The translations under genes were made by a program, and so were the position numbers. A DNA stretch of 64,000 nt, taken from sequence record ON210139.1; one strand, 5' to 3'. The stretch comes from Escherichia phage EC128. Shown piece after piece: positions 58,031-60,686 of this stretch; positions within the stretch are counted from its first letter, which is position 1, and each line of letters starts with the position of its first letter. Under the pieces are notes generated by a model. It ran no database searches. It saw nothing but the letters and a program-made list of their open reading frames with translations, and had not been told where the DNA came from.

Positions 58031-59059
58031 ATGTCATCAATACCTTGGATTGATAATGAGTTTGCATACCGTGCATTAGCTCATTTACCTAAATTCACAC
58101 AAGTAAATAATAGTTCAACTTTTAAATTACGGTTTAGATGCCCAGTGTGTGGAGATTCAAAAACCGACCAGAATAAAGCTCGTGGATGGTATTATGGCGA
58201 TAATAATGAAGGAAATATTCATTGTTATAACTGTAACTATCATGCACCAATCGGAATATATTTAAAGGAGTTTGAACCTGATTTATATCGTGAGTATATC
58301 TTTGAAATAAGAAAAGAAAAAGGTAAAAGTCGTCCAGTAGAAAAACCTAAAGAACTTCCTAAACAACCTGAGAAGAAAATAATTAAATCTCTTCCGTCAT
58401 GTGTTAGATTAGATAAACTGACGGAAGACCATCCAATTATAAAATATGTAAAAGCTCGTTGTATTCCAAAGGATAAATGGAAATATCTTTGGTTTACAAC
58501 CGAATGGCCTAAATTGGTTAATAGCATAGCACCGGGAACATATAAAAAGGAAATACCTGAGTCTCGTCTTGTTATTCCAATTTATAATGCTAATGGAAAA
58601 GCTGAGTCTTTTCAAGGACGTGCATTAAAGAAAGATGCTCCTCAAAAATATATCACCATCAAAGCTTATCCTGAAGCAACAAAAATCTATGGAGTCGAAC
58701 GAGTTAAAGATGGTGATGTATATGTTCTAGAAGGACCTATAGATTCACTTTTTATTGAAAATGGTATAGCTATTACGGGTGGTCAATTAGACCTAGAAGT
58801 TGTTCCATTTAAAGATAGACGAGTGTGGGTCTTAGATAATGAACCTCGTCACCCTGACACTATTAAACGAATGACTAAATTAGTTGATGCAGGAGAAAGG
58901 GTTATGTTTTGGGATAAATCTCCCTGGAAATCAAAAGATGTTAATGATATGATTAGAAAGGAAGGTGCAACCCCTGAACAAATTATGGAATATATGAAAA
59001 ATAATATTGCCCAGGGGTTAATGGCTAAAATGCGGCTATCTAAATATGCTAAGATTTAA
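58031..59059 (+). CDS. 61: DNA primase gp61
   Basis: 342 aa; zinc ribbon CPVCGDS...CYNCNYH; Toprim-like core. Confidence 0.9.
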   Translation: MSSIPWIDNEFAYRALAHLPKFTQVNNSSTFKLRFRCPVCGDSKTDQNKARGWYYGDNNEGNIHCYNCNYHAPIGIYLKEFEPDLYREYIFEIRKEKGKSRPVEKPKELPKQPEKKIIKSLPSCVRLDKLTEDHPIIKYVKARCIPKDKWKYLWFTTEWPKLVNSIAPGTYKKEIPESRLVIPIYNANGKAESFQGRALKKDAPQKYITIKAYPEATKIYGVERVKDGDVYVLEGPIDSLFIENGIAITGGQLDLEVVPFKDRRVWVLDNEPRHPDTIKRMTKLVDAGERVMFWDKSPWKSKDVNDMIRKEGATPEQIMEYMKNNIAQGLMAKMRLSKYAKI

Positions 59060-59256
59060 ATTAACCCAACTAAAGCAAATGCTAAATCTACGAATGTATC
59101 AAGAGTAACTACTGGAATACTAACGCCATGAGCAATAGCAACTGGCGATAAAACAAAATTCCAAAGTAAAATTCCTATCATAGCAGAAATAGTAAAAGCT
59201 ATACGTTTCTTATTACCTTTTATGGCATTAACAAGTGCCATTAATTTTTGTACCAT
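59056..59256 (-). CDS. antisense small hydrophobic membrane protein
   Basis: 66 aa on the minus strand in an intergenic gap; AAGGAGG SD 4 nt before the ATG; tail-to-tail 4-nt overlap with gene 61. Confidence 0.5.
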   Translation of the reverse strand: MVQKLMALVNAIKGNKKRIAFTISAMIGILLWNFVLSPVAIAHGVSIPVVTLDTFVDLAFALVGLI

Positions 59257-59291
59257 ATGTCCTCCTTTAAATTAATATTTATCATAAATTT

Positions 59292-59329
59292 GTTTACTTT
59301 CTCAGCTTGTTATGGTATTATAAAATAAA
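59292..59329 (+). promoter_or_regulatory. early promoter
   Basis: GTTTAC ... TATGGTATTAT. Confidence 0.55.
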
Positions 59330-59346
59330 TTGCTGAGGATGATATA

Positions 59347-59907
59347 ATGATTAATAAAATTGTGCATGAAATGGCTTTAAACGGAGATTCATATAAAATA
59401 TCTGCCGTGGTTGAAAATTTCATACTTAATAAAGTAAAAGAATATTTCACTGATTGTTCAGTTAGTTATCAAGAAAAAATGGTTTTAACCGATGATACTG
59501 AAAAATCAAATAATTTATTTTGTTCGAATTTTATAACTAAGAAGCGTACTAGAAGATTTGATATTGTTATTTCTCGCAATGGTAAAAAGCATATAATTGA
59601 AATTAAACATCAAGTTGGTGGAGGTACAGCTATTGATTCGGTTGGAATATATTTAGAAGATAAAGAGAAATTAAAAGAATACACAAAAACTGAAAACCCC
59701 GTGTCATTGATGATATTAGATTTTTTGCCATGCGGATATTATCCACGTAATAAATGGACAAAAAGAGAATCATTTACTGATAATCCAACTATCCAAGCAA
59801 GGTTTAATGAATATGCTAAATCACAAAACGTGTTAGTATTACTATCAAATACATATGATGAAGAATTATATAATTCGTTTTTTGCTGCAATAAATGAGAG
59901 AATATAA
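59347..59907 (+). CDS. PD-(D/E)xK-like nuclease-fold protein (predicted)
   Basis: 186 aa; [21 protein letters not shown] gives D-x13-E-x-K; stop overlaps the dam start (TAATG). Confidence 0.5.
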
Positions 59908-60686
59908 TGCTAGGAGCTATCGCGTATACAGGTAATAAACAATCATTATTACCTGAACTTAAGCCTCACTTTCCAAAATATGACAGATTCGTGGATTTAT
60001 TTTGTGGAGGTTTATCAGTGTCTTTGAATGTTAATGGCCCTGTATTGGCTAATGATATTCAAGAACCAATTATTGAAATGTATAAGCGTCTTATTAATGT
60101 ATCATGGGATGACGTTTTAAAAGTAATAAAGCAATACAAACTATCAAAAACATCAAAAGAAGAGTTTTTGAAATTACGTGAAGATTATAATAAAACTAGA
60201 GATCCTCTTTTACTTTATGTTCTTCATTTTCATGGATTTAGTAATATGATTCGTATAAACGATAAAGGAAATTTTACTACTCCATTTGGAAAAAGAACTA
60301 TAAACAAAAATAGTGAAAAACGCTTTAATCACTTTAAACAAAATTGTGATAAAATAATCTTTAGTTCATTGCATTTTAAAGATGTCAAAATTCTAGACGG
60401 CGATTTTGTATATGTGGACCCTCCATATCTTATAACAGTTGCTGATTATAATAAATTTTGGTCAGAAGAAGAAGAAAAAGACCTTTTAAATCTTTTAGAC
60501 TCTTTAAATGATAGAGGAATAAAATTTGGGCTGTCGAATGTTTTAGAGCATCACGGAAAGGAAAACACTCTTCTTAAAGAGTGGTCTAAAAAATATAATG
60601 TTAAGCATCTTAATAAAAAATACGTCTTTAACATATATCATTCCAAAGAAAAAAATGGAACTGATGAAGTATATATTTTTAATTAA
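59907..60686 (+). CDS. dam: DNA adenine methyltransferase Dam
   Basis: 259 aa; motif [12 protein letters not shown], catalytic DPPY. Confidence 0.9.

Follow-up and report, generated by a model that had tools for sequence, protein, structure and literature searches.

In Escherichia phage EC128 (sequence record ON210139.1), of which a stretch of 64,000 nucleotides (nt) was analysed and is called the window below, the dam gene is preceded by an open reading frame (ORF) of 186 amino acids (aa). Structure prediction and family alignment support a PD-(D/E)xK restriction-endonuclease fold for its product, with an invariant acidic/lysine triad, and wherever the gene was found it adjoins a Dam-type methyltransferase (MTase) gene. 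Judged by their sequences, the two genes most likely form an uncharacterised, phage-restricted system of the Type II restriction-modification sort, and T4 is a derived dam-alone genome in which the end of the partner gene survives. T4 and T2 Dam have served as biochemical model enzymes for about 40 years, and the reason why T-even phages carry a GATC methylase has been puzzling. As it now appears, T-even Dam is in nature almost always accompanied by a restriction-enzyme-like partner, co-inherited across several T4-like genera, and in the laboratory standard, T4, a deletion conceals this partner; the 'orphan' Dam of T4 may be what is left of a phage-borne restriction-modification pair.

The coupling of the two genes was first described in an earlier note on this DNA, which placed the ORF and its TAATG overlap with dam where we find them, the TAA stop codon (59905-59907) and the dam ATG having one base in common, and which likened the layout to that of restriction-modification systems. 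The same pair recurs in nine lineages (the window, Dhakavirus MX01, Jiaodavirus Shinkou and six known from metagenomes): at the 3' end of the nuclease gene, a D12 MTase gene follows directly in 9/9, with an overlap of 1-35 nt or direct abutment in the eight lineages measured and of 4 nt in the ninth (L008). The nuclease is 64% identical to the window protein in MX01 and about 40-44% identical in the Klebsiella phage Shinkou, where the pair lies near ndd with neither a primase gene nor the antisense ORF described below in its vicinity, so that nuclease and dam stay together after relocation. The partner MTases are in all lineages orthologues of T4 Dam (52-76% identity), and across them the DPPY motif is invariant together with K11, F111, S112, R116, P126 and R130, which we take to be GATC-contacting residues of T4 Dam. 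Nuclease and MTase diverge in step, the identity of the one between pairs of lineages following that of the other (r = 0.905, Mantel p about 4e-4), and the nuclease changes faster than its partner methylase. Endonuclease and MTase genes that are adjacent and co-inherited, a feature of Type II restriction-modification, are thus present in 9/9 lineages, which supports an obligatory linkage across the family and a conserved layout rather than a local accident.

In Slopekvirus, Krischvirus and KP182, the ORFs that precede Dam were considered as hidden homologues of the nuclease and rejected by hhalign. In the Klebsiella phage KP182 (Jiaodavirus; L030 292-1744), the locus that houses the pair in Shinkou is occupied by another ORF, of 210 aa, which weakly matches Hjc / PD-(D/E)xK (E 7e-4), has the motif vDIVask...lvIDvK and bears no significant relation to the window nuclease family by hhalign; it overlaps a second D12 MTase gene, followed by a T4-Dam orthologue. 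T4-like phages may, on this sequence comparison, carry more than one kind of small nuclease paired with an adenine methylase.

The 186-aa ORF is no chance reading frame: its product matches PHROG 8706, a family of unknown function, from end to end (5.7e-116). The nuclease motif that the earlier note had read in it is present, with a spacing different from the D-x13-E-x-K given there, namely D72-x12-E85-x-K87, followed by HQ. The nuclease fold proposed in the same place agrees with an AlphaFold2 model (input alignment of 7 sequences; mean predicted local distance difference test score, 80.7; predicted template modelling score, 0.80), which shows the canonical order of helices and strands and a predicted alpha-beta-beta-beta-alpha-beta core, the arrangement that defines the restriction-endonuclease-like superfamily. 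The highest-ranked Foldseek matches of this model in the PDB are PD-(D/E)xK proteins throughout, and the best are Type IIP restriction enzymes. In 8 aligned family members, the most distant of which is 32% identical to the window protein, the invariant residues are E23 (located in the second helix of the model, 15-33), D72, E85, K87, H88, Q89, G93-T-A-I-D-S98 and D125, and the signature motif is also retained in the Shinkou protein. The GTAIDS segment presumably resembles the GNAIER recognition motif of EcoRI and MunI; with MunI and the EcoRI-class Type IIP enzymes the protein has 13% sequence identity and no detectable sequence homology, and MunI recognises CAATTG, unlike the GATC proposed here.

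Profile comparisons point to another group of enzymes. The Pfam DpnII profile (PF04556) aligns residues 28-113 of the window protein with profile positions 152-235 of 278 (E 0.0045; 16.8 bits, the gathering threshold being 23 bits) and matches 4/8 family members, with a best E of 8.3e-5, and the PADLOC profile REase_II (PDLC03548) gives 9e-5 for the window protein, which aligns with a similar part of it (positions 149-239 of 290), and 5e-6 for the best family member. Because these hints are consistent but sub-threshold, the protein is filed under the PD-(D/E)xK superfamily: it resembles the core of DpnII and is not a demonstrated member of the DpnII/MboI family, having neither a score above the threshold nor the full-length architecture of about 280 aa. 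The likeness extends to the GATC-specific DpnII/MboI/LlaDCHI systems as a whole, which combine a PF04556 endonuclease with a DpnM-type D12 methylase: the methylases on both sides are of the D12/Dam family, the best sub-threshold profile matches of the nuclease fall on their catalytic core, and the genes are adjacent in both. The phage pair differs from them in its order, endonuclease then methylase with an overlap, in having no second methylase, and in residing in the genome of a virulent T4-like phage.

Members of this very small family turned up in T4-like phages and in metagenome contigs without assignment, and nowhere else. The full-length ORF is present in 154 phage records, in 113 of which the protein is at least 99% identical. 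PDB sequence searches with the single protein and with a profile gave no match up to E 10, NCBIfam gave matches at noise level alone, and the BFVD viral fold search returned the MX01 orthologue and weak generic endonuclease-like proteins, nothing further. All 11 matches of a profile search against 1.84 billion representative proteins are family members, fragments or chimeric calls; a word-indexed search added no family member, a scan of GTDB genomes gave no bacterial homologue, and IMG/VR gave one locus, an identical one. Two database proteins (P0008 and P0010) join an unrelated N-terminus, epimerase-like or asparagine-synthetase-like, to the C-terminal residues of the nuclease and are, from their sequences, probably chimeric assemblies or gene calls across a remnant of the T4 type.

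Within Tequatrovirus, the comparison of presence and absence that the earlier note had proposed was made on 503 phage records having the end of gene 61 and the antisense ORF. Both the interior of the nuclease gene and the nuclease-dam junction are present in 147 and the 5' part of dam in 180, which gives 147 records with the pair, 33 with dam and no nuclease, and about 323 with neither, where the tallies compare totals and not single records. Since the counts for interior and junction coincide, there is no room for a nuclease without dam; by totals, no endonuclease occurs without the methylase, the asymmetry predicted for a toxin-antidote or restriction-modification pair. Among the records with neither gene, Sf21 and RB51 have nothing inserted and fPS-90 has an HNH/NUMOD3 homing endonuclease at the site, so that the interval between genes 61 and 56 is polymorphic with four allelic states. 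In the metagenomic T4-like contig L012, an extra 93-aa ORF with a weak MazG-like match (4010-4291; E 0.0017) lies between the antisense ORF and the nuclease gene, a further sign that this interval is an insertion hotspot.

The absence of the partner from T4 is explained by what remains there. In the spacer between gene 61 and dam of T4 (309 base pairs, bp), the 66-aa antisense ORF is intact and the nuclease gene is reduced to its final 28 codons (aa 159-186), a 539-bp deletion (Table 1) having taken out the promoter, the ribosome-binding site and nuclease codons 1-158. In alignments, the junction is the same in T4, F1 and PD112, including an A-to-G change, which argues for a single deletion event.

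Expression signals are in line with a unit of its own. The promoter-like site upstream of the nuclease gene consists of GTTTAC, a spacer of 17-18 nt and TGgTATTAT, and the annotation of fPS-65 has a 'predicted early promoter' in the homologous position. Further upstream, the hairpin with a T-run lies within the 5' part of the antisense ORF, where the records of fPS-65 and fPS-90 have an annotated terminator in the corresponding part, and it probably ends gene 61 transcripts, to judge from its sequence. With a promoter-like site of its own and a terminator-like hairpin before it, the nuclease-dam pair looks like a separate early transcription unit.

We lean, with modest confidence, towards a Type II restriction-modification-like pair in which the 186-aa protein would be a GATC-directed, methylation-sensitive endonuclease and Dam would protect against it. 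Under this proposal, the two genes would be transcribed early from their own promoter and their translation would be coupled. The nuclease would be a small PD-(D/E)xK enzyme, probably a homodimer like Type IIP enzymes of the size of MunI and a remote relative of DpnII/MboI-type enzymes in their catalytic core, that would cut at or near GATC lacking N6-methyladenine. Dam would methylate, and hence shield, the hydroxymethylcytosine (hmC)-containing GATC sites of the phage itself. The victims would be DNAs with unmethylated GATC in the same cell, most obviously those of co-infecting dam-less relatives, which make up about two thirds of the Tequatrovirus records, but plausibly also further foreign DNAs, and T4 would represent a methylase-only state derived through one 539-bp deletion. 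Enterobacterial hosts are Dam+, which makes their own DNA an improbable target. Should the protein be a GATC endonuclease that is active and accepts modified cytosine, the pair would be a rare case of restriction-modification in a strictly virulent bacteriophage; it would then also be a candidate means by which related phages compete, and the enzyme might find use on DNA that contains hmC.

Two known situations frame this proposal. The chlorovirus PBCV-1 is a lytic virus with a Type II endonuclease and a protective cognate adenine methylase, R.CviAI/M.CviAI, which recognise GATC, and chlorovirus restriction enzymes degrade unmethylated host nuclear DNA. The phage pair would need another target, its host being already Dam-methylated, and we know of no sequence relationship between the two. 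The window Dam protein is 100% identical to T2 Dam (M22342), so that M.EcoT2Dam and M.EcoT4Dam, treated as solitary methylases, correspond to the downstream gene of the pair; in contrast to that 'orphan' status, dam here comes second in a conserved pair, whose first gene has left its remnant in the T4 spacer.

Several observations weigh against the restriction-modification proposal. Nuclease and dam lie within one indel in Tequatrovirus, so that their co-occurrence within the genus is partly non-independent and the linkage across genera is the stronger argument. In T2, a 1-nt deletion frameshifts the last seven codons of the nuclease and uncouples it from dam, and in phage G29 the nuclease ORF is split, from which it follows that the gene is dispensable. 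The likeness to DpnII stays below the family cut-off and covers the core only, with about 150 N-terminal profile positions having no counterpart in a protein of 186 aa as compared with about 280 aa, and the structural neighbours of the model include the non-restriction nucleases Can2, McrC and Bax1; cleavage itself is a prediction from fold, motif and linkage, and nuclease activity, GATC specificity, methylation sensitivity and biological target are likewise inferred. Host DNA is already Dam-methylated, which does not fit the classic target of host-DNA degradation. DNA of the T4 type, owing to its glucosyl-hmC, resists 94% of Type II enzymes (PMC7653180), and Dam may thus be unneeded for self-protection unless the enzyme tolerates modified cytosine. 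The scarcity of GATC counts on both sides. Among all sixteen 4-bp palindromes, GATC falls furthest below expectation in the window, with 60 observed and about 195 expected (0.31; the next, TCGA, has an observed/expected ratio of 0.64), which agrees with the proposal; however, the dam-less relative Sf21 (L032) is likewise depleted (0.37), so that depletion as a trait specific to carriers was rejected, and pressure from host Dam/MutH could explain it.

A more specific version of the proposal, possible though doubtful, would make the pair a weapon between phages. Dam-less relatives in the same cell, whose DNA contains hmC and unmethylated GATC, would have that DNA destroyed by carriers of nuclease and Dam, and dam-only phages such as T4 would be immune but unarmed. 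Such a killer/immune/sensitive locus fits the three allelic states observed (the pair, dam alone and neither). If true, it would explain T-even Dam and may contribute to the threefold depletion of GATC across the genus.

The polymorphism of the interval also suits a selfish homing cassette, in which a free-standing nuclease would cut the empty or dam-less junction between genes 61 and 56 and repair would copy nuclease and dam in, Dam being cargo or a block against re-cutting. The interval is a hotspot of presence and absence with at least four states, one of them the homing endonuclease of fPS-90, and the T-even Seg and Mob free-standing homing endonucleases are, like the nuclease, polymorphic between conserved genes of the same region; segF itself lies two genes and 1.3 kilobases downstream, and its product is 99% identical to T4 SegF. 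The G+C content of the cassette (59347-60686) is 27.5-28%, as against 34.5% for the window and 31-37% for adjoining genes, which hints at a different origin or different constraints. However, between carriers the ORF is 97-99% identical, compared with 97-98.5% for gene 61 and about 98% for dam. A cassette no more conserved than its flanks weakens the homing idea: among the carriers compared, there is neither an insert more similar than its flanks nor a co-conversion tract, and a recent horizontal sweep was rejected on the same ground. Moreover, the MTase accompanies the nuclease in all nine lineages and diverges with it, the best structural matches are restriction enzymes, and Seg and Mob enzymes have a GIY-YIG or HNH fold and no methylase partner, as opposed to PD-(D/E)xK with Dam; to our knowledge, free-standing homing endonucleases do not travel with a methylase. 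We therefore consider homing unlikely.

The strict linkage to Dam is equally expected if the nuclease is methyl-directed in the manner of DpnI or MutH and would act, by cutting or nicking, on GATC methylated in both strands or in one of cytosine DNA, whether host or foreign, with glucosyl-hmC shielding the phage. Host DNA is Dam-methylated and phage DNA contains modified cytosine, by which self and non-self would be neatly told apart; we nevertheless regard this arrangement as distinctly unlikely. Structural neighbours such as Can2/Card1, Bax1, McrC and Hjc-like proteins would in turn be compatible with a role unrelated to methylation (host-DNA breakdown, recombination, repair or resolution), the gene adjoining dam by shared inheritance. 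Chance co-inheritance would not maintain the pair through the relocation seen in Shinkou and divergence to about 30% identity with the frames still overlapping or abutting, and such a role is improbable. That the gene is decaying or non-catalytic (a restriction-modification relic, a pseudo-enzyme or an upstream leader aiding dam translation), as its loss in T4, frameshifted end in T2, split in G29 and absence from most Tequatroviruses might suggest, is very improbable in view of the intact full-length ORF in 154 records (113 at 99% protein identity or more), its full length in nine lineages and catalytic residues invariant down to about 32% identity.

In existing records, the nuclease is labelled 'hypothetical' nearly everywhere, and among the records listed two carry the mislabel 'head outer capsid protein'. 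A literature search for a described T-even nuclease partner of Dam, which covered subscription journals thinly, gave a single sentence, mentioning without analysis a 'restriction enzyme-like gene' beside a Dam-like gene in three phages (PMC13390438, June 2026), all of which are also among our matches; that label was given independently and speaks for the restriction-modification reading. As far as we have searched, the cross-genus linkage, the co-divergence, the T4 remnant and the three-state polymorphism are new.

The 66-aa ORF on the opposite strand, with its AAGGAGG site and its tail-to-tail orientation towards primase gene 61, had been described in the earlier note and is as described there, overlapping the end of gene 61 by 4 nt. 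It is a genuine gene and not a chance ORF. It matches PHROG 2024 (unknown function) over its full length (8e-31), it occurs in 692 phage records from at least four genera (Tequatrovirus, Mosigvirus, Dhakavirus and Gaprivervirus), convergent on the primase gene at every locus examined, and the ratio of nonsynonymous to synonymous substitution rates (dN/dS) is 0.1-0.3 where dS is unsaturated. It is annotated in most relatives (RB32ORF030w / RB69ORF029w) and present but unannotated in the T4 RefSeq record, where the conserved gene occupies a gap in the annotation (NC_000866 17738-17938; L001 2739-2939). The AlphaFold2 model has helices at residues 2-13, 16-42 and 52-63, that is, an N-terminal helix, a long hydrophobic helix (Kyte-Doolittle hydropathy is highest at residues 19-42), a KGNKKR stretch and a short hydrophobic C-terminal helix. 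The 8-mer GATAAATA lies 19 nt upstream of its ATG, is the same in the window, T4 and T2, and is annotated as a promoter in phage Lutter; ATAAATA is found about 15-22 nt 5' of the ATG in 10/12 copies compared, in diverged surroundings, and the copies in MX01 and L012 are preceded by a perfect TATAAATA. On these features of its sequence, the product is probably a late-expressed small membrane protein.

The earlier note had also counted this ORF as part of the nuclease-dam module, which does not hold: it is present with or without the two genes, most of the 692 records having neither, it is absent beside the Shinkou pair, and it carries a late-promoter-like motif of its own. Two types can be told apart, A in Tequatrovirus and Mosigvirus and B in Dhakavirus MX01 and the metagenomic L011 and L012, and Gaprivervirus VR26 (L020 1495-1901) has two tandem paralogues, one of each type.

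The region as a whole belongs to the early-gene arm of a Tequatrovirus (T2/T4-like phage), with the order sp, 61.2, 61.1, primase gene 61, the 66-aa ORF on the minus strand, the 186-aa ORF, dam, gene 56 and segF; coordinates are collected in Table 1.

Table 1. Positions in the window of genes and sequence features around the nuclease-dam pair.
Feature	Position	Strand	Basis or remark
Primase gene 61	58031..59059	+	342-aa ORF; about 98% nucleotide identity to T4 gp61; upstream early gene
66-aa small hydrophobic protein gene (= RB32ORF030w / RB69ORF029w)	59056..59256	-	PHROG 2024
Hairpin with T-run, terminator-like for gene 61 transcripts	59222..59251	+	terminator scan
Shine-Dalgarno AAGGAGG of the 66-aa ORF	59261..59267	-	direct sequence reading
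Late-promoter-like GATAAATA	59276..59283	-	7/8 match to the T4 late-promoter core TATAAATA
Stretch deleted in T4, F1 and PD112	59284..59822	+	539 bp; ATC microhomology
Early sigma-70-type promoter-like site of the nuclease-dam unit	59292..59321	+	promoter scan
Shine-Dalgarno GAGGA of the 186-aa ORF	59335-59339	+
186-aa PD-(D/E)xK restriction-endonuclease-like gene	59347..59907	+	PHROG 8706
Predicted catalytic/signature motif D72...E85-I-K87-H-Q-x3-G93-T-A-I-D-S98	59560..59640	+	family alignment
TAATG stop/start overlap, 186-aa ORF and dam	59905..59909	+	translational coupling
dam, D12-class N6-adenine (GATC) methyltransferase gene	59907..60686	+	Pfam PF02086, 6.5e-51
Gene 56	60749-61264		next gene after dam

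Downstream of the pair, 60749-61928 holds gene 56 followed by segF; gene 56 is 93% identical in nucleotides to that of T4 and just 69-80% identical to those of other cassette-bearing Tequatroviruses, a pattern of gene 56 and segF that resembles, at the level of sequence, the known SegF-driven co-conversion of gene 56. Measured from the first ATG, 29 ORFs on the minus strand of the window reach 60 aa or more, and among the 25 longest, which were inspected, none besides the 66-aa ORF has a strong ribosome-binding site, so that the view of the latter as the sole well-supported minus-strand gene is plausible. One minus-strand candidate, at 4222-4470, sits in an apparent transfer RNA region, judged from the sequence; at 4160-4490, ORFs that overlap on both strands appear to be spurious calls over a transfer RNA gene cluster.

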